14,955 nt of DNA from contig PSLL01000011.1 in NCBI GenBank assembly GCA_040289575.1, forward strand, positions 64,092 to 79,046, read 5' to 3'. Source of the DNA: Candidatus Dadabacteria bacterium. Its GTDB lineage: Bacteria; Desulfobacterota_D; UBA1144; Nemesobacterales; CSP1-2. The position numbers and the translations under genes are program-made. The stretch's first letter is position 1. Every line of letters starts with the position of its first letter. Shown here piece by piece: positions 1-14,955 of the stretch. Under the pieces are notes generated by a model. The model saw nothing but the letters and a program-made list of their open reading frames with translations. It did no database searches and was not told where the DNA came from.

Positions 1-495
1 AGGTATGATGGGGTAAGGTACGGATTCCGGGTCTCTGATGCTGACTCTCTCAGGGATATGTATATGAGAACAAGGGCGCAGGGATTTGGCTCTGAGGTTA
101 AGAGGAGAATCATGATTGGTACATATGCGCTCTCTGCAGGCTATTATGACGCCTATTATCTCAAGGCTCAGCGTGTAAGGACGCTCATTAAGAGGGATTT
201 TGATGATGCTTTTAAAAGGATTGATGTTATTATGACACCGACATCGCCTGAAGCCGCCTTTAAGATAGGGGAGAAAACAGACGATCCTCTCAGGATGTAT
301 CTTTCCGATATATTCACGATTCCATGCAACCTCGTTGGACTCCCCGGCATTTCAGTCCCATGCGGGTTTACATCCAGTGGTCTTCCTATAGGGCTTCAGA
401 TTCTTGGGAAACCGTTTGATGAAGAAACGCTTTTGCGTGTGGCCCACAACTATGAGATTCACACAAATTGGAGGGAAAGAAGACCGCCGATTTAA
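1..495 (+). CDS. gatA: Asp-tRNA(Asn)/Glu-tRNA(Gln) amidotransferase subunit A, C-terminal part (5'-truncated by window)
   Basis: Frame is open from base 1 (RYDGVRYG...). Contains [62 protein letters not shown] and GLPIGLQ, all hallmark GatA motifs. Confidence 0.97.
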
Positions 496-580
496 AACGG
501 GATGCAGGATTACAGAGTGGATGTAACTTTCGTGCATGATGAATCGTGCATCTTACATCAGTACCTTATTAGGAGGGGAT

Positions 581-748
581 ATGACAGAGAAAAAGAAGGT
601 CTGTATGATCTGTGGGAAACCCTCTGAGGCTTCAATATGTGATCCATGCAAGACTCAGATCCAGGGGGAGGCATTGGATAAAAAGCAGAAGATTGAAAGG
701 GATGTGAGAATTGGTCCAGATATTGAAAAAGAGAAAAAAAAGAAATAA
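581..748 (+). CDS. Small putative zinc-binding protein (55 aa, CxxC-x8-CxxC, Lys-rich tail)
   Basis: Strong SD AGGAGG at 571-576 before ATG 581, preferred over the ORF-track start at 536. Sequence MTEKKKVCMICGKPSEASICDPC...EKEKKKK. Confidence 0.75.
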   Translation: MTEKKKVCMICGKPSEASICDPCKTQIQGEALDKKQKIERDVRIGPDIEKEKKKK

Positions 749-777
749 TAATAGGTAATTATTTATTATATCTAAAT

Positions 778-1620
778 CTAATTCTGAGTTTTTTTCCAAA
801 CCTCAAGTGCCTTCTTATAAATTTTACTTTTAGAAACCCCTAAATTTCGAGAAACCTCTTTAACCGTGTCTTTCAGGCTTAAACCCTTTTCTCTATGAAG
901 TTCAAGCGTTGTACTAATAATATTTTCTAATATATCTGATTTATTGTATTTTCCTTCTAAGATTATTGTAAATTCTCCCTTTATTCCTTCCCTCTGTTTC
1001 AGGGTTTGTATAATGTTAGAGATCTCTCCCCTCAGGGTTTCTTCAAATACCTTTGTGATCTCTCGGCTTATAGAAGCCCGCCTGTTTCCTAGAGTCTCAA
1101 GCATAATTTTTAAGGTCTCTATAATTCTATTCGAGGATTCATAAAATATAAGTGTATGTCTGTACTCTCGAACCGACTCTAGGAATTCCCTCCTCTTTTT
1201 ATCCGACTTTGGAAAAAATCCGAGGAATATAAAGCTCGATGTAGGAAGCCCTGATATACTTAGCGCTGCTATTGCCGCTGAGGGGCCTGGTATGGAAATC
1301 ACTTCTATGCCCTTTTCTGAGGCAAGGCTTACAAGTCTATATCCGGGGTCTGAAATCCCAGGAGTTCCTGCATCCGAGACAACGGCTATGTTTTTTCCAG
1401 ATTCCACAATGGACAGGAGTTCTTCTGCTTTTTCTCTCTCATTATGCTCGTGATAGCTCGTAAGGGGTTTATGGATTTGGTAGCGGGAGAGGAGCTTCTT
1501 TGTAACCCTTGTATCCTCGCAGGCTATGAGATCAACCTCTTTTAAAATCCTGAGTGCTCGAAGTGTAATGTCCTCAAGGTTTCCTATAGGGGTTGAGACT
1601 ATGTAGAGCTTTCCTTTCAT
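778..1620 (-). CDS. rsmI: 16S rRNA (cytidine1402-2'-O)-methyltransferase
   Basis: GKLYIVSTPIGNLEDITLRA, IACEDTR, VSDAGTPGISDPG, IPGPSA, FYES and REITKVFEE motifs. Confidence 0.97.
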   Translation of the reverse strand: MKGKLYIVSTPIGNLEDITLRALRILKEVDLIACEDTRVTKKLLSRYQIHKPLTSYHEHNEREKAEELLSIVESGKNIAVVSDAGTPGISDPGYRLVSLASEKGIEVISIPGPSAAIAALSISGLPTSSFIFLGFFPKSDKKRREFLESVREYRHTLIFYESSNRIIETLKIMLETLGNRRASISREITKVFEETLRGEISNIIQTLKQREGIKGEFTIILEGKYNKSDILENIISTTLELHREKGLSLKDTVKEVSRNLGVSKSKIYKKALEVWKKTQN

Positions 1621-1682
1621 GGGTTTATAGATTACTCTAAGATACTGAGTTTAGTAAAACTAATAATCAATAAGATATATAA

Positions 1683-1708
1683 AGGCATATTGAAATTATA
1701 ATATGCCT
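1683..1708. promoter_or_regulatory. Perfect 9-bp inverted repeat, candidate operator upstream of rsmI
   Basis: AGGCATATT-N8-AATATGCCT, about 60 bp upstream of the rsmI start. Confidence 0.35.
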
Positions 1709-2115
1709 AATAAACTAAAATCTAATTTTACAGTTGACACTGAAAAAGTATTGGAAAGGGTTAAGAACTATCTTTTATACAAAGTAATCCAAACTCAGTT
1801 AGAAAACCTATCTCAGTTAAACAGCCCCCTATTGTAGAACAAGTCCATCTAAGTTGTATATTAGCTTCATAGGTTCAGGGATAGTAGAAGGTTGCTAAAT
1901 GAATTAGAGCAGGCTTTAATCTACAAAGGCTGTAGTAAATGAAATCCACATCCAAAGTTTGCGGTGTGGCCCTTTTGATAAGGCAATTGAGATACTAAAT
2001 GAGAGAAAAACTCCCGTCCTCTCTCTTATTTCTCATTTTTATCATTACAACGGCTTGAAGAAGCATAGCCACTGCAAACACGGCGCCTAAGGTTCTTATT
2101 GAGATGTATAAATGA

Positions 2116-2140
2116 GGGCAGGCGCGAATGTCACCTGCCC
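2116..2140 (-). terminator. Hairpin after amtB, probable intrinsic terminator
   Basis: GGGCAGG...CCTGCCC GC-rich stem 11 nt downstream of the amtB stop, followed on the minus strand by TCATTTAT (weak U-tract). Confidence 0.55.
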
Positions 2141-2151
2141 ATTATTATCAT

Positions 2152-3498
2152 TTAAACCGTATAACCCGTTTCGTTGTGCTGGCTCAAATCAATTCCCATT
2201 AGCTCTTCCTCCTCTGATACTCTGAGTCCCATAATAGCCTTGAGAATAGAGAGGATAATGAACGTGCCCACAATGGCAAGGACCCATGTGACTGCTACGG
2301 CAATCAACTGAACCAAGAGTTGATGCGGATTGCCGAAGAATAGGCCGTTGTTTCCGGCTGGGTTTATGGCCTTGGATGCAAATAGACCCGTTGCAAGAGC
2401 ACCCCATGTCCCCCCGATTCCGTGCACACCGACTACATCAAGCGAATTGTCGTAACCCAATTTTACTTTCACCGTGCATGCGGTAGAACATATGATTCCC
2501 GCACCGAGCCCGATAATAATAGAGGACATTGGACCTACAAAACCTGATGCAGGGGTGATTGCTACAAGCCCGGCTACGGCACCACTTGCCGCACCCAAGC
2601 AAGTGGGTTTTCCTCTAAATATCCAATCCATCATCATCCACGAAAGCGCGGCCGTTGCTGTCGCAATGTGCGTGGCTACAAACGCGCTTGTAGCCAGCCC
2701 ACCCGATGACAGCGCGCTTCCTGCATTAAACCCAAACCATCCTACCCATAGAAGGGATGCACCGACTACGCAAAATGGAAGATTATGCGGAGGCATTGCC
2801 TCTTTCCCATATCCGATCCGCTTGCCGAACATAATGGAAGCCACAAGGGCTGATATACCGGAGCTTATGTGAACCACCGTTCCACCTGCAAAATCCAAAG
2901 CCCCCATCCCACCATTGGTGCCTATCCATCCACCCTTGCCCCAGACCCAGTGTGCCAAGGGGTCATAGATGAATGTTGCCCAAAGCAATATAAATATGAG
3001 GAATGTGCTGAACTTTGCGCGCTCTACAAACGTGCCTGTAATAAGAGCGGGGGTAATAATTGCAAACATCAACTGGTAAACCATATACAACTGATGGGGT
3101 ATAGTACCCGCATAGTCCGGATTGGGTTCGAGTCCAACCCCTTTTAACCCGAACCAGGCGAGGCTCCCTATTATATGTCCTTTATCGGGACCAAATGCAA
3201 GGCTATATCCCCAGAGCACCCATTGGATAGTAACCAGACCCACTATTATGAAGCTGTGCATTATAACACTAAGGACGTTTTTTGACCTGACCAGACCGCC
3301 ATAGAAGAGGAATAGACCCGGTATTGTCATCATCAATACCAGGGCTGCGGATGTGAGCATCCATGCAGTATCGCCGGTGTCTATCTTTGGCGGTGCCGCC
3401 TCCTGGGCGAATGATAAGCCCGTAAACAGGATTAAAAGGAATACAGCTGGAGTTAAAACAAGACCTATAAAGCCCGCGGCTTCTCTTAGCTTCTTCAT
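2152..3498 (-). CDS. amtB: Ammonium transporter
   Basis: DTGDTAW, PGLFLFYGGLVR, DFAGGTVVHISSG, GWFGFNAGS, GLVAITP, GVHGIGG (both conserved His residues present) and C-terminal GLRVSEEEE..GID. SD GGGAGGG at 3505-3511 on the minus strand. Confidence 0.97.
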   Translation of the reverse strand: MKKLREAAGFIGLVLTPAVFLLILFTGLSFAQEAAPPKIDTGDTAWMLTSAALVLMMTIPGLFLFYGGLVRSKNVLSVIMHSFIIVGLVTIQWVLWGYSLAFGPDKGHIIGSLAWFGLKGVGLEPNPDYAGTIPHQLYMVYQLMFAIITPALITGTFVERAKFSTFLIFILLWATFIYDPLAHWVWGKGGWIGTNGGMGALDFAGGTVVHISSGISALVASIMFGKRIGYGKEAMPPHNLPFCVVGASLLWVGWFGFNAGSALSSGGLATSAFVATHIATATAALSWMMMDWIFRGKPTCLGAASGAVAGLVAITPASGFVGPMSSIIIGLGAGIICSTACTVKVKLGYDNSLDVVGVHGIGGTWGALATGLFASKAINPAGNNGLFFGNPHQLLVQLIAVAVTWVLAIVGTFIILSILKAIMGLRVSEEEELMGIDLSQHNETGYTV

Positions 3499-3545
3499 CT
3501 CTAACCCTCCCTAGGAATTGTGAAAAAAGTCAAGTTCATAATTAC

Positions 3546-3560
3546 ACAAAAATTGTGCCA
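3546..3560 (-). promoter_or_regulatory. Sigma54-type (-24/-12) promoter of amtB
   Basis: Minus strand reads TGGCAC-AATTT-TTGT versus consensus TGGCAC-N5-TTGC. Spacing is correct, with one deviation at -12. Lies about 48 bp upstream of the amtB start. Confidence 0.7.
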
Positions 3561-3619
3561 GTCATTTCCTCAAGAAAATCGGGCTTTTCTCATGAAAATT
3601 GGGTGGGTTCTAAAACGAT

Positions 3620-3658
3620 TGCCTATAAATTGGACACACTATGCACAAAACTTAATCA
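3620..3658. promoter_or_regulatory. Tandem NtrC-like enhancer boxes
   Basis: Two 17-bp sites, TGCCTATAAATTGGACA (3620-3636) and TGCACAAAACTTAATCA (3642-3658), resemble TGCAC-N7-GTGCA. They are 22 bp apart and 60-100 bp upstream of the -24 element. Confidence 0.55.
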
Positions 3659-3868
3659 GGGTTATGCCAACATCACCAAAATTGTAAGGGCATTCTTGTA
3701 TATGGAATCGCTGATTTGGGTTATCGGTTTTTCTCTAGAAAGTGGTGATATGAAGATAAGGTTGCTACTACTTTGATATTATGTAGTATTTAGACTAACC
3801 CTCGGCCACGGATGGATTTTAATCGTGTAGGTTCGTGGTTGAATGTGTTTTTTAATCCACAAACTGTT

Positions 3869-5047
3869 ATGGTAAATACGGCAGACGCAGTTATAATCGG
3901 AGGTGGGGTGACGGGGGCAAGTATAACATTCCATCTGGCTAAGCTCGGTCTTAAGGTCATCTGTGTTGAGAGGGGCTATCCTGCTTCAGGAGCAACAGGA
4001 AAGTCGAGTGCAATTATCAGGATGCACTATGATAACGAGCCTGAGGTGAGAATGGCTTTTATAAGCCTTCCGTATTTCCAAAATTGGAAGGATATAGTAG
4101 GCATGGGCGATTGCGGATTTAGGGGTACCGGATTCTTGAGGTTGGTTGATCCCGAAGACTACAATAAATTAAAAGCCAATGTCTCTATGATAAGGCAAGT
4201 CGGAGTAAATACTCAGATAATAAGCCGCGAGGATGTAGAAGAGATCGCTCCCAGTTTTTCAACTGGGGATATTGATATTGCCGCATGGGAGCCCGAATCC
4301 GGTTACGCCGACCCATGCGGGACAACATTTGGATTTATATCTGCCGCCGAGAGAGTGGGAGCGAAACTATTGAATCCTGCTTTGGTCACGGGAATAGATG
4401 TCGAATCGGGAAAGATAATCGGTGTAGAGACAAATCGGGGGTTCATTTGGGCAAGAATTGTAGTAAACGCCGCGGGGGCATTTGCATCGAAGGTAGCGGA
4501 GATGGCGGGACTTACACTTCCCATTAAGCCAATCCGCTATCAGGCGGGAATATTCAGGCGTCCACAGGAGATTGAGGCTCCCCATCCCATAACTATTGAC
4601 CGACTCTCAGGGCAGTTTTATTTTAGACCCGACGAAACGGGTCATACCCTAGTTGGAGGAATTGGTGCTGAGAAGGGGGTCAACCCCGAGGATTATAATG
4701 AGACTACTGACCTCGGATATTCTAAGACCGCATTGGGTCTGATCTCAAAGAGAATCCCAGGGATGGAAAGGGCGATTTTTCGCGGGGGGAGGGCCGGATG
4801 TGATGGGCTGAGCGATGACCGGTATGCAATTATAGACATGGTTTCCGAGATCGAGGGATTTTACTGTGCAGTGGGTCACAGCGGTCACGGTTTTAAAATC
4901 GCCCCCGCTGTGGGGATATGTATGGCTGAGCTAATTACCGAAGGAAAAGCAAAAACCGTTGAAATATCGCCGTTCCGCCTTAGCCGATTTGCCGAGGGTG
5001 TAAACCCGTTTAAGAACCCCAACCTTTATGGCGAGCGTGAGCAGTAG
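3869..5047 (+). CDS. FAD-dependent oxidoreductase, D-amino-acid oxidase / sarcosine oxidase beta-like family
   Basis: N-terminal DAVIIGGGVTG dinucleotide-binding motif, GATGKSSAIIRMHY, VVNAAGA and GHSGHGFKIAPAVG. Start at 3869 preferred on domain boundary; 3812 is possible. Confidence 0.9.
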   Translation: MVNTADAVIIGGGVTGASITFHLAKLGLKVICVERGYPASGATGKSSAIIRMHYDNEPEVRMAFISLPYFQNWKDIVGMGDCGFRGTGFLRLVDPEDYNKLKANVSMIRQVGVNTQIISREDVEEIAPSFSTGDIDIAAWEPESGYADPCGTTFGFISAAERVGAKLLNPALVTGIDVESGKIIGVETNRGFIWARIVVNAAGAFASKVAEMAGLTLPIKPIRYQAGIFRRPQEIEAPHPITIDRLSGQFYFRPDETGHTLVGGIGAEKGVNPEDYNETTDLGYSKTALGLISKRIPGMERAIFRGGRAGCDGLSDDRYAIIDMVSEIEGFYCAVGHSGHGFKIAPAVGICMAELITEGKAKTVEISPFRLSRFAEGVNPFKNPNLYGEREQ

Positions 5048-5165
5048 GGTTTTGGATTGGCTTTTAAAAATAAGTATAGGGTTTGCGGAGAAATGGAAAA
5101 ATACCCTTCTTCCCGTGTTGTCCGTTGCAATTTTCATATCTCGCCACTTACAATCCACAATCGGG

Positions 5166-5193
5166 TTGTCACACATACGATATTGTGTAATAT
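5166..5193 (+). promoter_or_regulatory. Possible sigma70 promoter for the MaoC-ligase operon
   Basis: TTGTCA-N16-TAATAT, with an imperfect palindrome ACACA-N8-TGTGT overlapping the spacer. Confidence 0.3.
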
Positions 5194-5244
5194 TTAGAAA
5201 TCCTAAAAATCTACATAGAAAATTAACACAGGAGGATAATTCTC

Positions 5245-6411
5245 TTGCAGAGGACAAATCTCATTTCTTCAAGATACGTGGGCGACTTTAGTGAGGGAGA
5301 TGTCTATCATCACGGTGCGATTCAAATCACCCCTATGAGAAACAGGGAGTATATAAATAAATACAGAGACGGTTTAATCCTTGGAGCGAACCCGGAACTC
5401 AACTTGCATCTCGGATATGAAGACCCCGATTATAAACAAAAAAGAGAGAGATACGGGATAGAAAAACCAGCTCTCGTGAGTCAGGGATTTGTTTTTAACG
5501 TGGGGTTTGGACTCAGTGTCCATGATATATCTTTTAATGCCATTGCAAACCTGTCTTATAGCGATCTGAGATTTGGTACGCCTGTATTTGAGGGTGATGT
5601 CATATACGCAAAGTCTCAAGTACTTGGTAGGGAGTTTAGAAAAGACGGGGCGACAAACGGCTCTGTGCAGGTAAAGACCACGGTTTATAATCAGAGAGAG
5701 GAATCTGTGCTTGAGTATGTAAGGCAGGTGCTAGTAAGGGCTGAGGGCAAAAAGACCTATTCCAAGGAGAGCACTATAAAACCGCAGCCGGGCAGGATTG
5801 ATATACATAAAATGGTTCTTCCAAAACCGTATCACAATCTGCCAAAAGAGCTTCTTGGAAAAGACGGAAAGATATTTGAGGATCTTAATGTGGGAGATGT
5901 CTTTCATGGCCTATTTGAAGAACCAATTGACCTTGTGACTTTTAGCTGGCTTCAGATTGCAACACTAAATGATGCGGCAGTCCATCACAACCCATCATCG
6001 AATTTTATTGGATATGGCGGCGCGGTGAAGGCAAGAGCCGAAGGGGAGATAAGCGGACATTTTCCCCTTGCATACCACATTGGAATGAATAGCGGCTCAC
6101 ACGATGCTCCGACTTATCCGGGGGATATAGTTCAGGTAATATTTGCCGGTGGAAGGGAAGGAGCACATGAAAGAATAAGGGCAAGGATTGAGATAGTGGA
6201 CAAGGCTACAGTCGGCGGAAGGGACGATATTGGGATTATAACGGTAAGGCTTATCGGGGAGAAGTATGTAACCGACGGGGGACTGAAGGCACTTGAAGCC
6301 GCAAAGTTTGGGGGGATTGACCAGATATACGAAGAAAACGGAAATAGATTCCTCAAGGTGCTTACATTAGAGCAGGTATTGGCTGTGCCTACGCAGAAGG
6401 CGTTTAAATGA
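5245..6411 (+). CDS. Double hot-dog (tandem MaoC) acyl-CoA hydratase, divergent mesaconyl-CoA hydratase-like
   Basis: TTG start with AGGAGG at 5230-5235. SVHDISFNAIANLSY, PVFEGD, NQREESVLEYVR, NDAAVHHN, YGGAV and NSGSHDAPTYPGD correspond to recalled Mch motifs (DISLNAVANLGY, NTAKVHF, YGGHV, NAGAHANP). Confidence 0.8.
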   Translation: MQRTNLISSRYVGDFSEGDVYHHGAIQITPMRNREYINKYRDGLILGANPELNLHLGYEDPDYKQKRERYGIEKPALVSQGFVFNVGFGLSVHDISFNAIANLSYSDLRFGTPVFEGDVIYAKSQVLGREFRKDGATNGSVQVKTTVYNQREESVLEYVRQVLVRAEGKKTYSKESTIKPQPGRIDIHKMVLPKPYHNLPKELLGKDGKIFEDLNVGDVFHGLFEEPIDLVTFSWLQIATLNDAAVHHNPSSNFIGYGGAVKARAEGEISGHFPLAYHIGMNSGSHDAPTYPGDIVQVIFAGGREGAHERIRARIEIVDKATVGGRDDIGIITVRLIGEKYVTDGGLKALEAAKFGGIDQIYEENGNRFLKVLTLEQVLAVPTQKAFK

Positions 6412-6453
6412 TGTTTATTTATTCGTGGCTAAGTAAAAACCCCAAGAGGGCAA

Positions 6454-8169
6454 ATGTACATGGCAACCAAAGCTAAAAGACCCAAAGACCTGAAATACAC
6501 TCTAAATCTTGAAAGGCACCGTCCTTTCGATGTTAAGTGGTATGAAAAGGAGGATAGAACCAAGTGGGTTCTGCCTCATATCCTGAGGCAAAGAGCCGAA
6601 GAACTAAGCGACAAACCGTTTTTACAGTTTGGATATAACCCTCCGTACAGCTTCTCACAAACCAACCTCCTTGCCAATAGAATCGCAAATGGACTTATAC
6701 ACCTTGGGGTTAAAAAGGGAGAAAAGGTTTCTGTCTATATGCCCAATTCCTCTGACTACGTTCTTATATGGTTCGGAATTTTAAAGATGGGCGGGGTTAT
6801 GGTTCCTATAAATACAGCATACAAAATGGATTTTCTTCAGTACATAATAGACTCATCCGACTCTAAGGTGCTTTTTATTGCCGAGGAATATCTCGATAGG
6901 ATTCCACCGGTTGCTAATAAGATCCCTAAGATTGAGAATGTCATTGTGTGGACTCGAACCGGAAGCGAGGAGTTTGATCCCCAGGGGTTTCATTTAAGAT
7001 ACATGATTCCGTTTATCACGTTTCTGAATGAACATAAAGAGGACGAGCCCGATGTACAGATTACACATCTCGATCATGCAAGGCTCATGTATACATCTGG
7101 CACAACAGGGAGGTCAAAGGGTGTTGTAAGGCCGTGTCAGGCTGACTATCAGAGCGCAAGGAACTACGCCGAGATTATGGACGTGTGGAATGATGATATT
7201 TGCTTTACGTGTCTTCCCCTTTTTCATTCAAACGCAATGGTGCTTACCGTATATCCGGCTCTTATTATGGGGGCGCGGGTAGTTGTACAGGAGAAATACA
7301 GCTCCACTCAGTTCTGGAAATGGATGAAGGATTACGGGGTTACAAAGTTTAATATGGTGGGTACTATGTCTTATTTTATGTGGAATACCCTGCCTGTGCC
7401 GGAGGAGAAGGAGCATAACGTAAAATTGGTTCTTGGCTCCCCTGCTCCCCACGACATCATAGAGCCTTTTATGGAGAGGTTCAATATAAAGTTTATGGAA
7501 GGCTACGGGCTTACAGAGATAGGTCAGGTTACATACATGCGCCCCGGAGAGCCGTTTCGAGTGGGTTCATGCGGCAAGGAAGCGCCGGGGTATGAGATTA
7601 AGATTGTAGACCCTGAAATCGATGAGGAGCTTCCGAGAGGTCGGGTTGGAGAGATAGTCGTCCGACCCAGGATTCCAAATATAATGCTCCATTATTATCA
7701 CAAGATGCCTGAGAAAACCGTACAGGACTTCCGCAACTTCTGGTTTCATACCGGAGATGCGGGAAGGATGGATAAGAAGGGATATATATATTTTGTTGAT
7801 AGGGTAAAGGATTACATAAGGAGAAGAGGCGAAAATATAAGCTCATTTGAGGTTGAGAGGATTATAAACTCTCATCCCGCAGTGGCGGAGTCGGCGGCGG
7901 TTGGAATAAAAGCCGAGACAGGCCATTATGCAGAAGACGAGGTTATGGTTGTAGTTGTGAAAAAGCCAGATATGGGTGTCACACCGGAAGAGCTTTTAAG
8001 ATTCATTGAACTCCAGATGCCGCACTTCATGATTCCCAGATTTATCCGATTTGTAACCTCTCTTCCCAAGACCGGAACAGAAAGGGTGCAGAAGAACAAG
8101 CTCCGAGAAGAGGGTATAACCTCTGATACATGGGACAGAGAGAAAGCGGGTTATCAAATAAAGCGGTAG
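6454..8169 (+). CDS. ATP-dependent acyl-CoA ligase (CaiC crotonobetaine/carnitine-CoA ligase-like)
   Basis: AMP-binding motif YTSGTTGRSKG, plus LPLFHSNA, EGYGLTE, WFHTGD, DRVKDYIRRRGENISSFEVE and LPKTGTERVQK. Confidence 0.92.
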   Translation: MYMATKAKRPKDLKYTLNLERHRPFDVKWYEKEDRTKWVLPHILRQRAEELSDKPFLQFGYNPPYSFSQTNLLANRIANGLIHLGVKKGEKVSVYMPNSSDYVLIWFGILKMGGVMVPINTAYKMDFLQYIIDSSDSKVLFIAEEYLDRIPPVANKIPKIENVIVWTRTGSEEFDPQGFHLRYMIPFITFLNEHKEDEPDVQITHLDHARLMYTSGTTGRSKGVVRPCQADYQSARNYAEIMDVWNDDICFTCLPLFHSNAMVLTVYPALIMGARVVVQEKYSSTQFWKWMKDYGVTKFNMVGTMSYFMWNTLPVPEEKEHNVKLVLGSPAPHDIIEPFMERFNIKFMEGYGLTEIGQVTYMRPGEPFRVGSCGKEAPGYEIKIVDPEIDEELPRGRVGEIVVRPRIPNIMLHYYHKMPEKTVQDFRNFWFHTGDAGRMDKKGYIYFVDRVKDYIRRRGENISSFEVERIINSHPAVAESAAVGIKAETGHYAEDEVMVVVVKKPDMGVTPEELLRFIELQMPHFMIPRFIRFVTSLPKTGTERVQKNKLREEGITSDTWDREKAGYQIKR

Positions 8170-8178
8170 GATTTAAAA

Positions 8179-8655
8179 ATGGGACGACTCTTGAAGCCGA
8201 TTGATAGGCAACGCCTCTCAGTATGGCTCAGCTATGGTGAGGATGCAATCTACCTGGTTGCTGGTGGGATACTGGCTGCAACTGCTGGTCTGATGCTATT
8301 CTCAACGGGCAAGCTCTTCTTCCAGGCTGTACTAGCCGAGACACTCGTACGCAGTTCACTTGAAGTGCTTGATTCCCTACTTTTGGTATTGATGTTGGTT
8401 GAGCTTCTGCACACGATTCGCGTTTCCATCGTGGAGCACACTTTGGTTACAGAGCCATTCCTCATCATTGCCTTGATTGCTGGGGTACGCCGCATACTGA
8501 TCCTGACTGCCGAGGCCTCGCAATTCATTCAGACCCAGCCCGAACGGTTTCGTATGGCGATGATGGAGATAGGGGTACTCACAGTCTTTTTCTTGGTAAT
8601 TGTAGCCTGTATAGTTCTACTTCGCCGCTTTTCCTCTAACTCTTCGGGGACTTGA
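8179..8655 (+). CDS. Phosphate-starvation-inducible PsiE-family membrane protein
   Basis: Four hydrophobic segments, LLLVLMLVELLHTIR and EPFLIIALIAGVRRIL motifs. AGGA SD overlaps the ligase stop codon. Confidence 0.8.
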   Translation: MGRLLKPIDRQRLSVWLSYGEDAIYLVAGGILAATAGLMLFSTGKLFFQAVLAETLVRSSLEVLDSLLLVLMLVELLHTIRVSIVEHTLVTEPFLIIALIAGVRRILILTAEASQFIQTQPERFRMAMMEIGVLTVFFLVIVACIVLLRRFSSNSSGT

Positions 8656-8681
8656 GATTGATATAAAGAAGGAAGCGAGTC

Positions 8682-8831
8682 ATATCAAATCTGGTTGATT
8701 AGTAACTGTATAGTATATCATCTGAACCATTTGATGTCTCGGCGTAAACTCCGTGAAGTATCTCCGTTTACATGGATTCTTCGCCTTCGGCTCAGGATGA
8801 CATGTACACTGTGTTTATCCGGATTTGATAT
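8682..8831. mobile_element. 150-bp non-autonomous element (MITE/REP-like) with terminal inverted repeats and an internal palindrome
   Basis: Left end ATATCAAATCTGGTTGA matches the reverse complement of the right end (ATATCAAATCCGGATAA) at 14/17, and 12/13 at the outer ends. Internal degenerate palindrome 8716-8802 ends GATTCTTCGCCTTCGGCTCAGGATGACA. Confidence 0.65.
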
Positions 8832-9009
8832 TATTTCTCATCTCCTCGATGTACACATCATCAAATTGCATTTACCTGTATGGTGTGGGTAGATGGTTAT
8901 GATACATGATAATATTAGATACCTCAATTATTTTGGGTAAGGAAGCGCGGTGGATAACAGATGTAATTGCAAGAGCATAAATCAAAAGTCAGGTCTCGAC
9001 ATTTTACTG

Positions 9010-9038
9010 TTGATGAAGATAAAAAAATAGCATAAGAT
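9010..9038 (+). promoter_or_regulatory. Possible sigma70 promoter of the LLM gene
   Basis: TTGATG-N17-TAAGAT, 27 bp upstream of ATG 9066. Confidence 0.35.
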
Positions 9039-9065
9039 GATTATATTTGATAAAAAGAGGCGCGC

Positions 9066-10151
9066 ATGCAATACGGTTACTTTACGATGCCTTTGCATCC
9101 CCCTGGGTCTGACTATACTCAGGCTCTTGATGAAGACCTGGAACAGATTATAGTGCTCGATCGCCTGGGCTACCGAGAGGCGTGGATTGGTGAGCACTTT
9201 ACAGCCGCTTGGGAAAATATTCCCGCCCCCGACCTTCTAATTGCAAAGGCTATTCCCTTAACTAGGAACATAATACTCGGCACCGGTGTTTCATGCCTGC
9301 CGAACCACGACCCTTTTGTGCTTGCCCACAGAATAGCAGTCCTCGATCACCTTGCGAAGGGGCGGTTTTACTGGGGTGTAGGAGCAGGGAGTTTTATCGG
9401 CGATTTTGAGGCGTTTGGAATTAATCCCAAGACAGGGGAGCAGAGGAATCTAACCAATGAATCGCTGGACTTCATTCTCAATCTGTGGAATAACCCCAAA
9501 CCCGGAATCTATGGAAATAGCAGGTGGAGATTTTGCGTCCCAAGACCCCAAGATGACGTGGGGCTTGGGGTTCATATCAAACCATATCAGAAACCCCATC
9601 CACCGATAGCGGTTGCTGGAATTACGGAAGGCTCAGGAACACTGAGAATTGCAGGCGAAAGGGGATGGATACCCATGAGCATTAATTTTGTAACAAGAGA
9701 CGTTTTAAAAACCCATTGGGCCTCGGTTGAGGAAGGAGCCCAAGAGACCGGAAGGACCGCAGACCGATCGAAGTGGAGAATAGCCAGGGACATATATGTT
9801 GCTGAGACAACGAGAGAAGCCCGCCGAGATGTTAAGGAAGGAACCCTTACAAGGGACTTTACGAATTATTTCTTCAAGATGGTTCCAAAGATCAGGGGAA
9901 ACCTAGACATATTTAAAATTGATAAGACTATGCCTGATTCGGATGTAACCCCTGATTATATGATAGGCAACCTCTGGATTGTTGGAAGTCCCGATCATGT
10001 CATTGAGCAGATTAAAGAATTATATGATTATGTTGGTGGCTTCGGTGTTCTACTTGTAATGGGTCATGAGTGGCATCCCAAAGACCAGTGGGTCCACTCT
10101 ATGGCACTTTTGGCAGAAGAGGTCATGCCGAAATTAAAAGATTTAGGCTAA
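9066..10151 (+). CDS. Luciferase-like (LLM class) flavin-dependent monooxygenase
   Basis: LDRLGYREAWIGEHF, WENIPAP, LGTGV..LPNHDP, LDHLAKGR, KPYQKPHPPIAVAG, IVGSPDHV and LLAEEVMPKL. SD AGAGG at 9056-9060. Confidence 0.92.
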   Translation: MQYGYFTMPLHPPGSDYTQALDEDLEQIIVLDRLGYREAWIGEHFTAAWENIPAPDLLIAKAIPLTRNIILGTGVSCLPNHDPFVLAHRIAVLDHLAKGRFYWGVGAGSFIGDFEAFGINPKTGEQRNLTNESLDFILNLWNNPKPGIYGNSRWRFCVPRPQDDVGLGVHIKPYQKPHPPIAVAGITEGSGTLRIAGERGWIPMSINFVTRDVLKTHWASVEEGAQETGRTADRSKWRIARDIYVAETTREARRDVKEGTLTRDFTNYFFKMVPKIRGNLDIFKIDKTMPDSDVTPDYMIGNLWIVGSPDHVIEQIKELYDYVGGFGVLLVMGHEWHPKDQWVHSMALLAEEVMPKLKDLG

Positions 10152-10172
10152 AGGTCAAGAAAAACTCTGCCC

Positions 10173-10203
10173 TTGACATTTAAGTAATTCGCTTTATTAT
10201 AAT
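10173..10203 (+). promoter_or_regulatory. Sigma70-type promoter upstream of the RSPP leader ORF
   Basis: Perfect TTGACA (10173-10178), with TATTAT at 16-bp spacing and a perfect TATAAT at 19-bp spacing. Confidence 0.6.
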
Positions 10204-10276
10204 AACTAAAATTAATTGATTTACTTAATTGTGGCTGAGTATGGTATGTATTGCTTAGAGGGCGCTGAGTTGAAAA

Positions 10277-10705
10277 ATGAATTCTAGATACATTACCACT
10301 CAGATTTCTAGGCCTATTGGAATTACTAATTGGGATACCATAAAGGTATACTTCTACGTTTTAATTGTAATCTCTATACTCGGAATATTAGGACCAATCC
10401 CTGTATCTAATAAGGTTCAAAACGAATCTTCATTATCTGATCGAAGTTTTCTCGCTCTTTATTCTTTGAACATAAATAATTCAACTAAACAGAGCTATGC
10501 CCTTCTTGAGAATGGTGAGGATAATGATTTCAGCGTGAAAGATTCTCAAGTATTTTCTAAGCTGTTTGCAGTGGCAATTGGGCCTTTAATCCTCTCTTCC
10601 ATTAATCTACAGCGGTGGGAAAATTTATTCAATGAAATAAGGTCTTTTTCTTATATCTTTTCCTTTTCATCACTTCCTTTAAGATCCCCTCCTTTATTTT
10701 TCTGA
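10277..10705 (+). CDS. Membrane-targeted leader protein ending in RSPP; candidate ribosome-arrest peptide
   Basis: N-terminal hydrophobic segment VYFYVLIVISILGILG, Ser/Asn-rich spacer, C-terminus LPLRSPPLFF. A 142-codon open frame in AT-rich DNA directly after a promoter. Confidence 0.65.
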   Translation: MNSRYITTQISRPIGITNWDTIKVYFYVLIVISILGILGPIPVSNKVQNESSLSDRSFLALYSLNINNSTKQSYALLENGEDNDFSVKDSQVFSKLFAVAIGPLILSSINLQRWENLFNEIRSFSYIFSFSSLPLRSPPLFF

Positions 10706-10836
10706 TTTTAGTGTACTCCGCTTAGGCAGAGGTCTTGAAATTTGCTTTAATCTGTCTAAGAGGTGTAGACAAGATTGAATGGTTATTGCGTATAGGGATA
10801 CAGAACCAATTCATTGTAATCAGTTAAATGAGGAGG
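10688..10836 (+). promoter_or_regulatory. Multibranch RNA structure sequestering the SD of the gene at 10842
   Basis: CCTCCT-TTATTTTT-CTGATT (10688-10707) pairs with AATCAG-TTAAATG-AGGAGG (10818-10836). It encloses hairpins 10711-10770 and 10776-10813. Confidence 0.65.
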
Positions 10837-10841
10837 AAAAA

Positions 10842-11243
10842 ATGAGAACACTAAGAGCACTCAAGATAGCAAGAAGAGAATGGGAAAATATCAGAACATC
10901 ACTTGAGATGTGTGGGGATATAGGGGAGTTCGATTCTAAGGACTATATAAATACTAGGCTTATCTCTATATCTGAAGGCCTACTTTTAGTTAGAGACCTT
11001 ATAGAGATGGAGAATAAACTCCCGACTTATGGGTATTTTACGCAAGAGGCTACTTATGTTTTCTCTGCCCTTGCGTCGGGTGCTGCAGAGAGGCTTGGGA
11101 TTATAGGCAGGCTGGCTCAGAGCTTCGGTAGGGGTTATAGCTGGGTTAGAACAGGATGGTTTGATTCAAGCGATATAGAAAATCAGCATGTAATAAAGCA
11201 GATGATCTTCTTTAACCTCTTCTTCCCGATTGAGGAGGATTGA
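10842..11243 (+). CDS. Hypothetical protein (133 aa), possibly frameshifted at its 3' end
   Basis: Strong SD GAGGAGG 10830-10836 before ATG 10842, preferred over 10779. Globular-looking sequence with no family recognised. Confidence 0.7.
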   Translation: MRTLRALKIARREWENIRTSLEMCGDIGEFDSKDYINTRLISISEGLLLVRDLIEMENKLPTYGYFTQEATYVFSALASGAAERLGIIGRLAQSFGRGYSWVRTGWFDSSDIENQHVIKQMIFFNLFFPIEED

Positions 11244-11256
11244 GGTAAAGGTGAGA

Positions 11257-11373
11257 ATGAAAACTGTATTCGATAAGTTTGTCGCGTGGCAGGATGCGCC
11301 AAAGAGCTATATTCTGGATGTTAGAAGGTATAGGGATCGGCTATGGGACTTCTTTGGCTCGGTTTACCATTAA
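11257..11373 (+). CDS. 38-aa ORF: either an independent small protein or the out-of-frame C-terminus of the 10842 gene
   Basis: MKTVFDKFVAWQDAPKSYILDVRRYRDRLWDFFGSVYH, in the +1 frame relative to the upstream ORF. GAGGT and AAGGTG lie upstream. Confidence 0.45.
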   Translation: MKTVFDKFVAWQDAPKSYILDVRRYRDRLWDFFGSVYH

Positions 11374-11927: not shown

Positions 11928-12095
11928 ATGAGAGAAGAAAATAACATAAATGCGATTTTGTGGGAGATTCGACGTTTAAAAGAAGAAGCAGAAAAGTTTT
12001 CCTGGTTGCTAGGTGAAGAACTAGCACACAGGATAGTTGAAGCTTTGCAAGAAAAAGAAAACGACGTAATTGAAAACCTTATGTGGTTTGCCTAG
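11928..12095 (+). CDS. Small acidic helical hypothetical protein (55 aa)
   Basis: SD GGAGGT 11913-11918 before ATG 11928. Amphipathic helical sequence; stop lies 26 bp before degP. Confidence 0.65.
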   Translation: MREENNINAILWEIRRLKEEAEKFSWLLGEELAHRIVEALQEKENDVIENLMWFA

Positions 12096-12121
12096 AGAGT
12101 TTTTTTGGTAAGGAGGTAGTT

Positions 12122-13561
12122 ATGAAACGGTCTTTATCATTAGTAATTTTAGTTCCATTAGTCCTTTCTATGGCTTTGATAGCATGTAGGAACTCCCAGG
12201 AGGAAAAGGCAACAAAGAAAAGCGACGATAAGGTAGAAACGACCAGAGTTGAAAACCTTCCGTCATTTGCGGGACTCGTTGAAAAATTAAAGCCATCTGT
12301 TGTAAATATAAGTACAACAAGTGTGGTTCGTGCCAAGGGCTTTTTCAATTTCCCTTCACCGTTTGGTGAAGAAGACCCATTTGAGGAGTTTTTTAAGAGG
12401 TTTTTTGGTGAGATTCCTCAGCAGGAATTCAGACAACACGGGCTTGGTTCCGGGTTTATCATAAGTGGAGATGGATATGTAGTAACGAACAACCACGTGA
12501 TTGATAAAGCTCAGGATATTGAGGTTATCCTTGCAAACAGTGAGAAATACAAAGCCAAGGTTGTAGGTAAGGACCCAAAAACCGATCTTGCTCTTCTTAA
12601 GATTGAGCCTAAAAGGAAACTGCAGGCAGTGACCTTTGGAGACTCAGATAAACTCCAGATAGGGGATTGGGTTATCGCGATAGGAAACCCGTTCGGATTG
12701 GGTCATACGGTTACGGCGGGGATAGTCAGCGCAAAGGGGAGGGTTCTTGGTCTGGGCAACTATGATGACTTTATTCAGACGGATGCGCCGATTAACCCCG
12801 GGAACAGCGGTGGGCCTCTTTTTAACCTTCAGGGACAGGTTGTCGGTGTAAACACCGCAATAGTTGAAGGCGGCCAGGGGATTGGATTTGCCATTCCAAT
12901 TAATATGGCAAAGGATGTGGTTGAGCAGCTCAAAGAGAAAGGAAGGGTGATTCGTGGATGGTTGGGGGTTATGATACAAAATATTACGCCTGAGATTGCC
13001 GAGGGTATGGGTATTAAGGAGACTAAAGGTGCACTAGTAGCGGATGTGACCCCGGGTGGCCCTGCAGAGAAGGTCGGGATAAAAAGAGGAGATATAATAG
13101 TCGAATTTAATGGGCATAGGGTTGAGAAAGTAGTTGACCTTACAAGTATGGTTGCAGTTACTCTACCAGGCACAGAAGTACAAGTAAAGGTTATAAGAGA
13201 AGGGAAGGAAAGAGACATTACCGTTAAGATTGGAGAGCTTACGGAGAAGGCATCAATAGGAGGTGAAAAGGAGTCCAAAGAGAGAATAGGACTAACCGTT
13301 GAGGAGATAACCCCACAGATAGCGAATCAATTTAATCTGGGAGAGGAAAAAGGGGTTGTTGTTACGGATGTGGAGGCGGGTGGCATAGCCGATGAAGCTG
13401 GATTTCAGGTGGGGGATGTAATTCTGGAGATAGGCAGACAACCCATCAAAAATATAGATGATTATGAAAGAGCGGTAGAGAAACTAGAGAAGGGAAAATC
13501 GGTTCTTTTTCTTGTAAAAAGGGGAAAGAACACAATATATATAGGTGTAAAAATTGGGTAG
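12122..13561 (+). CDS. degP: DegP/DegQ (HtrA, Do family) serine endoprotease with two PDZ domains, predicted lipoprotein
   Basis: GLGSGFII, TNNHV (His), TDLAL (Asp), IQTDAPINPGNSGGPL (Ser) and two PDZ domains. SD TAAGGAGG before ATG 12122. Lipobox LIAC at Cys22. Confidence 0.95.
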   Translation: MKRSLSLVILVPLVLSMALIACRNSQEEKATKKSDDKVETTRVENLPSFAGLVEKLKPSVVNISTTSVVRAKGFFNFPSPFGEEDPFEEFFKRFFGEIPQQEFRQHGLGSGFIISGDGYVVTNNHVIDKAQDIEVILANSEKYKAKVVGKDPKTDLALLKIEPKRKLQAVTFGDSDKLQIGDWVIAIGNPFGLGHTVTAGIVSAKGRVLGLGNYDDFIQTDAPINPGNSGGPLFNLQGQVVGVNTAIVEGGQGIGFAIPINMAKDVVEQLKEKGRVIRGWLGVMIQNITPEIAEGMGIKETKGALVADVTPGGPAEKVGIKRGDIIVEFNGHRVEKVVDLTSMVAVTLPGTEVQVKVIREGKERDITVKIGELTEKASIGGEKESKERIGLTVEEITPQIANQFNLGEEKGVVVTDVEAGGIADEAGFQVGDVILEIGRQPIKNIDDYERAVEKLEKGKSVLFLVKRGKNTIYIGVKIG

Positions 13562-14047: not shown

Positions 14048-14955
14048 TTATCCATCTGTTTTTATCCCCGTAATCTTCTCTACGAGAGACCTTCTCTCAT
14101 CGAGGTCGTATTTGCGCATCATCTCTATCCTTTCAGCCTCGGGCGAGCCGCCGCCATGAATGCTTATGACTGAATACCATCCTCCCTGATAAGACGCGGT
14201 AATATCTTCGAGTAGCCTTGCAATCTTAAGTCTGTGTTCGGAGGAGATGTCTTCCCTGCCTTTGAGGTATCTCGAAAGCCTGTCTTTAATATTTGGAACT
14301 TCCATATCTTCGGGATAAGGCGAAGTCACAAGTATTCCGCCCGAGGTTTCATGAGCGATCTTAAACATATCATATATATGAAGCCCTTGAATGAGCTTTC
14401 CAATATTCGCGTAGACGGGGTCAGGGAAGAAATTCCCCGCGGGAGTCTCTTTTCCAAAAACACAAGAGGCGACGCCGCATGCATAGAATGATTCTACAAA
14501 CTTTATGAGTTCCGAAATCTTATCACGGATGTGCCCGACCTTTTGAGGGTCAAGCCCGTTAAAATCCGCTATAGAAGCCGAAGCGCCTATAATCATATCC
14601 CCAAGCCCCGCCCTACAGCCTATACAGCTTAATCTGTGATGTGTGGCAAAAGCCTCGGTCAGCATTCCTGCAAACTGCCATTCACATGAGAGAAACACCC
14701 TCTCCCAAGGGACAAAGACATCGTCAAAGAGTATCATAGCCGTTGCCTGCCCGTATCTAGAGCTAAGCTCCGCCCCTGAATCCTCTGGACGCCCTGCCTC
14801 GCGGGATACCATCTCAATCCCATTCGCATCAACCGGGATGGCAAAAGAGACGGCATAGTATTTATCCTTTTCAGTCATAGCCCTTGTTGGGAGGACTATT
14901 ATTTCGTGCGTGTATGGTGCGCCGGTTACAATCGCTTTTATTCCCCTTACAACGA
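14048..14955 (-). CDS. 4-hydroxybutyryl-CoA dehydratase / 4-hydroxyphenylacetate 3-hydroxylase family protein (5'-truncated by window)
   Basis: Frame is open to the window end (VVRGIKAIVTGAPYTHEIIVLPTRAM...). Contains DKYYAVSFAIP, FDDVFVPWERVFL, HHRLSCIGC, GDMIIGA and HGGGSPEA. Confidence 0.9.
   Translation of the reverse strand, partial: VVRGIKAIVTGAPYTHEIIVLPTRAMTEKDKYYAVSFAIPVDANGIEMVSREAGRPEDSGAELSSRYGQATAMILFDDVFVPWERVFLSCEWQFAGMLTEAFATHHRLSCIGCRAGLGDMIIGASASIADFNGLDPQKVGHIRDKISELIKFVESFYACGVASCVFGKETPAGNFFPDPVYANIGKLIQGLHIYDMFKIAHETSGGILVTSPYPEDMEVPNIKDRLSRYLKGREDISSEHRLKIARLLEDITASYQGGWYSVISIHGGGSPEAERIEMMRKYDLDERRSLVEKITGIKTDG

Follow-up and report, generated by a model that had tools for sequence, protein, structure and literature searches.

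A candidate RSPP-type arrest leader upstream of an orphan helical protein gene and a DegP-type protease gene in Candidatus Dadabacteria

A computational analysis has been carried out on a stretch of 14,955 nucleotides (nt) from a Candidatus Dadabacteria bacterium (assembly GCA_040289575.1, contig PSLL01000011.1, positions 64,092 to 79,046 of the forward strand), hereafter called the window, in which a 142-amino acid open reading frame (ORF) ending in Arg-Ser-Pro-Pro (RSPP) plus three residues precedes the gene of an orphan helical protein in a cluster with a DegP-type protease gene. Judged from the sequences of its relatives, this ORF is a genuine gene family that lacked annotation, and it is probably an arrest-type regulatory leader. 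With less assurance, it is regarded as a cis-regulatory RAPP-like (RxPP) arrest peptide in which the coupling to the next gene would consist of the unmasking of its Shine-Dalgarno (SD) sequence. The layout and the logic of such leaders are already known, and it is the RSPP family itself that is unannotated.

The coordinates and codons of the ORF were verified, including the N-terminal hydrophobic segment and the RSPP motif three codons before the stop that had been described in the original prediction (Table 1). R136 is encoded by AGA (10682-10684), S137 by TCC, P138 by CCT (10688-10690) and P139 by CCT (10691-10693), followed by Leu-Phe-Phe and the stop codon. The protein contains neither Cys nor His, it has no match to any model of Pfam or NCBIfam, and the copper-sensing DUF2946 type, from which the leader had been set apart because of its lack of Cys, was not found in the family either (PF11162, 0 of 15 members at E <= 10). 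An AlphaFold model obtained with an alignment of 36 sequences has a mean predicted local distance difference test score (pLDDT) of 56, with residues 44-86 below 50, and its sole confident part is a membrane helix at residues 18-37 (pLDDT 79-88). A folded domain is unlikely because of the low pLDDT outside this helix, and the leader is predicted to be largely unstructured apart from it. A promoter had also been claimed before the ORF. The site found there matches the consensus at 11 of 12 positions, and such sites are about as common in the region as in shuffled sequences (4 seen, 3.5 expected), so that it is taken as a consensus match only. Position 10614 is G in the window and A in all four sequencing runs, which changes codon 113 from CGG (Arg) to CAG (Gln); this difference falls outside the conserved C-terminal module.

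Used as a single-protein query, the leader was matched in 9 of 41 related genomes, all nine of them from the family-level group of the window, and in 8 of the 14 genomes of that group with the genome of the window excluded. A profile made from 15 sequences was compared with 101 genomes of the order and revealed the leader at 29 places in 18 of them, a single genome having as many as four copies; by family-level group, matches were present in 9 of 14 genomes (f1), 7 of 33 (f2) and 1 of 37 (f8), and in none of the remaining families. The genome of the window has three copies, namely the leader under study, C20 and C28. Only 7 close relatives were found in a large protein collection. The family alignment comprises 36 members, 30 from the loci and 6 database proteins, which are 13-70% identical to the copy in the window.

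In this alignment R136, S137, P138 and P139 are the only invariant columns, so that the RxPP motif, whose conservation had been proposed as a check, is present in 36 of 36 homologues; L135 and L29, the latter within the membrane helix, are nearly invariant. The codons of the motif are free to change: Arg is encoded by AGA or AGG, Ser by TCC, TCT, TCG or TCA, the first Pro by CCT, CCG, CCA or CCC and the second by CCT, CCC, CCG or CCA. Since all four wobble positions vary and the amino acids stay fixed, the codon comparison places RSPP under selection at the level of the peptide. The same comparison bears on an explanation by RNA-level conservation only, in which the 3' end would be an anti-SD mimic and the peptide irrelevant. 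By its nature, Ser-Pro-Pro written as UCN CCU CCN can base-pair with SDs of the GGAGG type, and in two unrelated RSPP leaders of the same genome, described below, 8 contiguous bases of the Ser-Pro-Pro codons are complementary to the downstream SD, as read from the sequences. Nevertheless, this explanation, already disfavoured, is very improbable, given that the wobble bases vary in all four codons while the amino acids never do, and that in 7 of 29 loci the core pairing is broken by the wobble base of a Pro codon.

The layout around the motif is also maintained. When the 29 loci were anchored on the Arg without gaps, about 15 residues before it were found conserved (L at -1 in 26, P at -2 in 21, F at -6 in 23 and Y at -10 in 19 of the 29), and an acidic cluster kept the same register further upstream (D at -52 in 16, E at -53 in 11 and D at -54 in 12 loci). 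All 29 loci have a hydrophobic 19-residue segment (Kyte-Doolittle 1.6-2.7), which ends 81-103 residues before the Arg in 28 of them, the exception being locus L060, where the top-scoring window is a later segment located 23 residues before the Arg. The tail after the two prolines has three residues in 23 of 29 loci, the residue at the C-terminal end being variable (S, F, L, K, C or Q). The next start lies 34-171 nt after the leader stop (136 nt in the window, to the ATG at 10842) and is preceded by a strong SD. No conserved Cys was found in the family, as no alignment column has Cys in at least 40% of the sequences.

RxPP and RSPP arrest motifs reportedly came out of random-library screens (Tanner 2009, Woolstenhulme 2013). 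A six-frame scan of the genome of the window, restricted to frames of 70 codons or more, for R-x-P-P-type motifs at most 12 residues from the stop has revealed 52 matches, with RSPP exactly three residues before the stop in six of them and an N-terminal hydrophobic segment in five of these six. Three of the five ORFs are the members of the family of the window and the other two are unrelated, only the motif being aligned when both were compared with the family alignment by hhalign. The first unrelated leader contains Cys and His and precedes genes for a 443-amino acid uncharacterised protein, ZnuA, an ABC ATPase and ZnuB; the second is His-rich and lies between a DegP gene and genes for an uncharacterised protein, CopC and CopD. 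PF11162 did not match either of them at E <= 0.1. The two leaders are located at about 14759-15148 of contig C47 (L066:996-1349, + strand) and at about 6852-7169 of contig C104 (L067:3353-3670, - strand), and their leader/SD pairs differ from each other by a matching change on both strands. RSPP is depleted in long ORFs of the same genome: in those of at least 250 codons, where the numbers are small, the expected numbers of RSPP, RAPP and RGPP were 4.3, 4.6 and 5.2 and those observed 1, 1 and 0, and the control motifs were at expectation (KSPP 4 against 4.3, ASPP 5 against 4.8, and RPPS likewise).

Two features of these comparisons have been counted in favour of arrest: unrelated leaders of one genome appear to have converged on RSPP plus three residues, and the leader of the family seems to be used as a module before differing genes. 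Both also bear on the explanation that the product of the ORF is a small membrane protein of the ordinary kind, of which the C-terminal PLRSPPLFS-like end would be a docking or degradation tag acting at the protein level, for instance for a PDZ protease, with the SD pairing as a by-product. In 5 distinct loci a DegP-type PDZ protease is indeed encoded near the leader, and such a gene also immediately precedes another RSPP leader; moreover, the helix shows no covariation and the leader 3' end would pair with nearly any strong SD. A tag of this kind is nevertheless improbable, because the leader sits before unrelated genes, unrelated leaders of the genome converge on RSPP plus three residues and a stop, the protein is by prediction largely unstructured, the last residue after RSPP varies, and the motif belongs to a ribosome-stalling class (PMC12992588, from the part available) that is depleted in this proteome.

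The pairing of the leader 3' end with the SD of the gene at 10842, for which about 17 base pairs had been claimed, was examined by folding positions 10660-10860. The helix (P1, Table 1) is favoured, with 17 pairs in both the minimum free energy (MFE) structure (-49.1 kcal/mol) and the centroid, and 7 further pairs join 10664-10670 to 10842-10848, including the AUG start codon. Of the outcomes that would have counted against the original prediction, neither a loss of RxPP in homologues nor a helix disfavoured in folding was thus encountered. When the footprint of a stalled ribosome and all the sequence upstream were forced to be single-stranded, the predicted pairing of SD and AUG in the window fell from 0.97 to 0.29, in line with the effect proposed for a blocked leader end. 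The whole fold is only modestly more stable than expected by chance (z = -1.79, 8 of 200 shuffles being as stable). As for the duplex itself, the leader 3' end pairs equally well or better with 5.1% of 313 other SD regions of the GGAGG type in the genome. Rfam searches on six loci gave 2 matches only, both implausible and far under the gathering score.

The downstream start is defined in 29 loci. Of these, 16 have an SD predicted to pair at P > 0.5 with the region from RSPP to 6 nt after the stop; when a region of the size of a ribosome footprint around the presumed P site was taken instead, the number was 23 (mean 0.72), compared with 22 of 189 background ORF pairs (mean 0.13). The background consisted of same-strand ORF pairs of the genome of the window with a strong SD and a 60-200-nt spacer, and three RSPP leaders are among its top scorers. 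P138 is CCT in 22 of 29 loci, this codon representing 27% of the Pro codons genome-wide. As the Ser-Pro-Pro codons and the U/C-rich tail are an inherent anti-SD, occlusion of the SD by the stall site would be a family-wide tendency.

Several results weigh against SD unmasking, or against arrest as a whole. The covariation in the helix that the original prediction had looked to was not found: cognate duplexes (-16.5 kcal/mol) are hardly distinguished from swapped ones (-15.9 kcal/mol, permutation p = 0.14), in one clade the leaders form more favourable duplexes with SD regions from the other clade than with their own, and RNAalifold gave no consensus structure on a MAFFT alignment of 15 spacers, a weak negative because the SD region is out of register in that alignment. 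The cognate SDs of the five RSPP leaders of the genome stand at percentiles 5, 44, 70, 14 and 31 among about 313 GGAGG sites. P138 is CCG, CCA or CCC in the 7 loci with broken core pairing mentioned above, and a clear predicted switch (paired above 0.5 when free and below 0.5 when stalled) is obtained in just 12 of 29 loci. ApdA and ApdP variants carrying RSPP retain partial arrest that is weaker than that of RAPP (PMC7897499, in the part available). The first target in the window is truncated or frameshifted, with 133 amino acids against 183-235 in its relatives, and the loci of the family are kin, so that counts over them overstate the independent support. A compensatory origin had been considered for CCUCCG/CGGAGG in one clade as opposed to CCUCCU/AGGAGG, and the swap energies did not bear it out. 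In our reading, the pairing between leader and SD is a generic complementarity to any strong SD, strong in the window, and not a co-evolved helix.

A spacer hairpin about 40-65 nt after the stop, the first of the two in Table 1, recurs in several loci of the MEIL type (L003-L007, L014 and L017, read by eye). Its stem base pairs differ between loci (e.g. CCAT/ATGG and CCG/CGG), its 3' flank is A-rich and it is not terminator-like.

In the proposed mechanism, the N-terminal hydrophobic segment would direct the nascent chain to the membrane. With the P site occupied by R136-S137-P138 and the A site by Pro139-tRNA, a placement made by analogy with ApdA and ApdP, in which RAPP slows peptide-bond formation (PMC10951233, in the part available), formation of the next peptide bond would be slowed, and the paused ribosome would occupy about 10676-10705, the pyrimidine-rich, anti-SD-like 3' end of the ORF. 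Without a pause, this end would pair with the 3' strand of P1 and hide GAGGAGG, and the second short helix would hide the AUG of the gene at 10842. A long pause would thus switch on the downstream genes, that is, those of the orphan helical protein, a small periplasmic protein and probably DegP. Once the pause was released, by a pulling force generated by export or through the action of a ligand on the chain immediately beyond the tunnel, the ribosome would translate three codons to the stop and depart, and the helix would re-form.

The closest characterised layout is that of CruR (Bp2923, DUF2946/PF11162) of Bordetella pertussis, which leads the cruR-bfrG-bp2921 operon. According to the available part of its description, CruR is exported, has 145 amino acids and carries RAPP three residues before its end, with a 162-nt spacer; its arrest is required for downstream expression, and copper bound at a CXXC motif 45 residues upstream of RAPP relieves the arrest and leads to Rho termination, a C/T-rich unstructured stretch being described in the mRNA (PMC9426467). 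The leader of the window shares with CruR the size of about 140 amino acids, the export or membrane targeting, an RxPP motif plus three residues at the end, a long spacer (136 against 162 nt), a target outside the Sec/YidC machinery and a second conserved element at a fixed distance from the motif, CXXC at 45 residues in CruR and the acidic cluster at about 52 here. It differs in that PF11162 does not match the family even at E <= 10, in the lack of Cys and hence of a CXXC, in RSPP instead of RAPP and in a target operon that does not encode a TonB receptor.

As the clean SD switch is confined to 12 of 29 loci, there is room for another route, and the same arrest leader might be coupled in the manner of CruR: the stalled ribosome would keep Rho off the C/U-rich, G-poor end of the leader, and relief of the arrest would lead to termination before 10842. 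This coupling is possible but rather unlikely. It is in keeping with the dimensions close to those of CruR (142 against 145 amino acids, the motif three residues from the end, similar spacers; PMC9426467, in the part available), with the composition of the last 75 nt of the 29 leaders (on average C 27%, U 39% and G 12%), with a rho gene in the genome of the window and with the finding of no intrinsic terminator on the + strand in 10100-11300. A rut site, however, is not provable from sequence, the spacer, for which structure is predicted, shows no enrichment in C (C 19%, G 19%), and the predicted occlusion of the SD by the stall region is far commoner than in background pairs. Rho blocking would give the same logic, with stalling as the ON state, and may coexist with SD masking.

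SD unmasking itself has precedents among the RAPP-type leaders of the ApdA, ApdP and RQH kind, in which a stem over the downstream SD is presumed to be opened by the stalled ribosome. In one RQH leader the masking of the SD was demonstrated by stem mutations (PMC10987492, in the part available). Like ApdA, ApdP and RQH, the leader of the window has an N-terminal localisation signal, a variable middle, about 20 conserved C-terminal amino acids and RxPP near the stop. That family sits upstream of secA, secDF and yidC, whereas the targets of the family of the window are not Sec/YidC components, as had been stated for the orphan protein gene in the original prediction; in addition, Ser replaces Ala or Gly at the second motif position and several paralogous copies per genome precede varied genes. 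The likeness to SecM of Escherichia coli is one of concept, the arrest of a secreted monitoring substrate exposing the SD of the next gene. The arrest sequence of SecM, F....WI....GIRAGP (motif as given in the available part of PMC10987492), is absent from the leader, the target of SecM is secA and there is no homology. The notion of a SecM-like attenuator thus stands as regards the layout of published RAPP-type leaders, and it does not extend to the arrest sequence of SecM or to a clean switch beyond 12 of 29 loci.

The survey in PMC12992588, in the part available, describes RSPP as an arrest-capable motif from random-library screens that is under-represented in proteomes, and reports that small RAPP/RGPP ORFs with localisation signals are enriched upstream of TonB-receptor, YcnI, PCuAC, PepSY and DsbA-type genes, small RAPP/RGPP upstream ORFs (uORFs) being found also before metal-homeostasis and DsbA/thioredoxin genes. 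The leader of the window resembles these uORFs in being a small protein with a localisation signal, a C-terminal motif and diverse non-Sec genes downstream. The survey analysed RAPP and RGPP, and neither natural RSPP families nor the target set of the window are described in that part of it.

With respect to the signal, the original prediction had proposed a sensor of membrane insertion or secretion stress. Force generated by export is one possibility, with which the layout agrees in having 81-103 residues between the first hydrophobic segment and the Arg, and the proposal stands as one option only, given that CruR, the closest layout, acts through Rho and senses metal (PMC9426467, in the part available). 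The other possible signal, hinted at by analogy with CruR, would come from a ligand or a metal that acts on the part of the chain beyond the tunnel, since the acidic cluster is fixed, a cupredoxin is among the targets and metal operons lie behind other RSPP leaders. More tentatively, the Cys-free RSPP family might sense a signal that is neither Sec/YidC nor CXXC copper, such as envelope or periplasmic stress or a cation through the acidic cluster, and might drive a lineage-specific quality-control regulon, its Ser-Pro-Pro codons doubling as the anti-SD strand. In this rather doubtful proposal, the acidic cluster about 52 residues from the candidate stall site would be just outside the ribosome tunnel, and the regulon would conceivably, though not probably, comprise the orphan helical protein, small OB-like periplasmic proteins and DegP. 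A literature search on arrest peptides upstream of DegP or related to envelope stress returned only unrelated papers.

Arrest-peptide leaders now reach beyond Sec/YidC, as CruR and the RAPP/RGPP uORFs before metal genes indicate, and no description of natural RSPP families with non-metal, non-Sec targets was found in the available portions of the arrest-leader literature compared. The invariant motif, the several paralogues before different genes and the two unrelated leaders with the same ending make a clean natural test set, in which the manner of RSPP stalling, SD masking as opposed to Rho coupling and the release of a stall without CXXC could be addressed. Through the family, the regulation of an orphan protein family and of a DegP cluster also becomes approachable in a soil lineage that is uncultured and little known.

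Table 1. Positions in the window of the candidate leader, its elements and the downstream genes.
Feature	Position	Strand	Remarks
Candidate RSPP-type ribosome-arrest leader ORF (P0001)	10277..10705	+	142 amino acids, ATG 10277, TGA 10703-10705
Promoter-like site TTGACA, 16 nt, TATTAT	10173..10200	+	Sigma-70-like, 11/12 consensus match, 5' of leader
N-terminal hydrophobic (membrane or signal-anchor) segment	10352..10408	+	Residues ~26-44, best 19-residue Kyte-Doolittle window 2.23
Acidic cluster E78-D84	10508..10528	+	Distance to candidate stall motif conserved
Conserved C-terminal module, residues 122-139, RSPP at its end	10640..10693	+	RSPP codons 10682-10693
Predicted helix P1, 5' strand	10688..10707	+	Pro-Pro codons, Leu-Phe-Phe codons, stop and 2 nt
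Predicted helix P1, 3' strand	10818..10836	+	Contains the SD GAGGAGG, 10830-10836
Two predicted spacer hairpins inside P1	10711-10739 with 10746-10770; 10776-10789 with 10795-10813	+	MFE structure of 10660-10860
Candidate first regulated gene, orphan all-helical 'MEIL' protein	10842..11243	+	Here 133 amino acids
Small signal-peptide protein, 106 amino acids	11491..11811	+	Recurs downstream in related loci
DegP/HtrA-type serine protease, two PDZ domains	12083..13561	+	Same strand as leader

The genes behind the leaders of the family are varied: MEIL is the commonest, and small signal-peptide proteins placed directly after the leader, a sulfotransferase, a beta-ketoacyl synthase and a plastocyanin/azurin-type cupredoxin are also found, with secA, secDF and yidC, the genes behind monitoring substrates such as SecM, MifM, VemP, ApdA/P and RQH, not among them. 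The sulfotransferase belongs to loci L013 and L063, the beta-ketoacyl synthase to L047 and L050 and the cupredoxin to L064. The arrangement of leader, MEIL and then DegP, all on one strand, was found in 5 distinct loci. When the loci were searched through the MEIL protein, 11 of the 23 found had the leader and 12 did not.

For the MEIL gene, the homologues favour the start at ATG 10842 over a longer ORF from 10779. The family is narrow (71 representatives among 1.84 billion proteins) and its AlphaFold model is all helical, with a pLDDT of 85. Neither Pfam nor NCBIfam matched the protein, Foldseek against the PDB gave no match at E <= 0.001, and all ESM Atlas scores were below 0.9. A likeness of a relative (L004:1525-2232) to zinc metallopeptidases was considered on the basis of a VIA-align search, in which the best Z was 7.2 and the top rows were mostly helical domains (Z 4-7); it was set aside because this Z is below the level meaningful for helical proteins and HExxH is present in 0 of 31 members.

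The copy of MEIL in the window looks, from its reading frames, like the product of a frameshifting deletion. A C-terminal remnant of about 44 codons can be read at 11239-11373 in a different frame, the conserved stretch NWDF(N/D)S has been lost, and the contigs of three sequencing runs match the window at the frameshift region. Within 11113-11166, the contigs from each of the four runs are interrupted at 11136-11166, and the summed depth is about 3- to 5-fold higher in the bin 11116-11161 in three of the four runs. The join of the window at 11136-11166 rests on a repeat, since the conserved stretch is common to paralogous copies.

The family of the small signal-peptide protein gave faint matches, below threshold, to CusF_Ec in 6 of 11 members, the copy in the window not being one of them, and faint matches to ExtJ as well. 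A profile search of the PDB sequences with the small exported proteins had a best E of 0.05.

The flanking genes (1-10151 and 14048-14953) correspond to ordinary metabolism and transport, and include an amidase fragment, a tetrapyrrole-type methylase (RsmI-like), an ammonium transporter, an FAD oxidoreductase, a MaoC-like hydratase, an AMP-binding ligase, PsiE, a luciferase-like monooxygenase and an HpaB-family enzyme.

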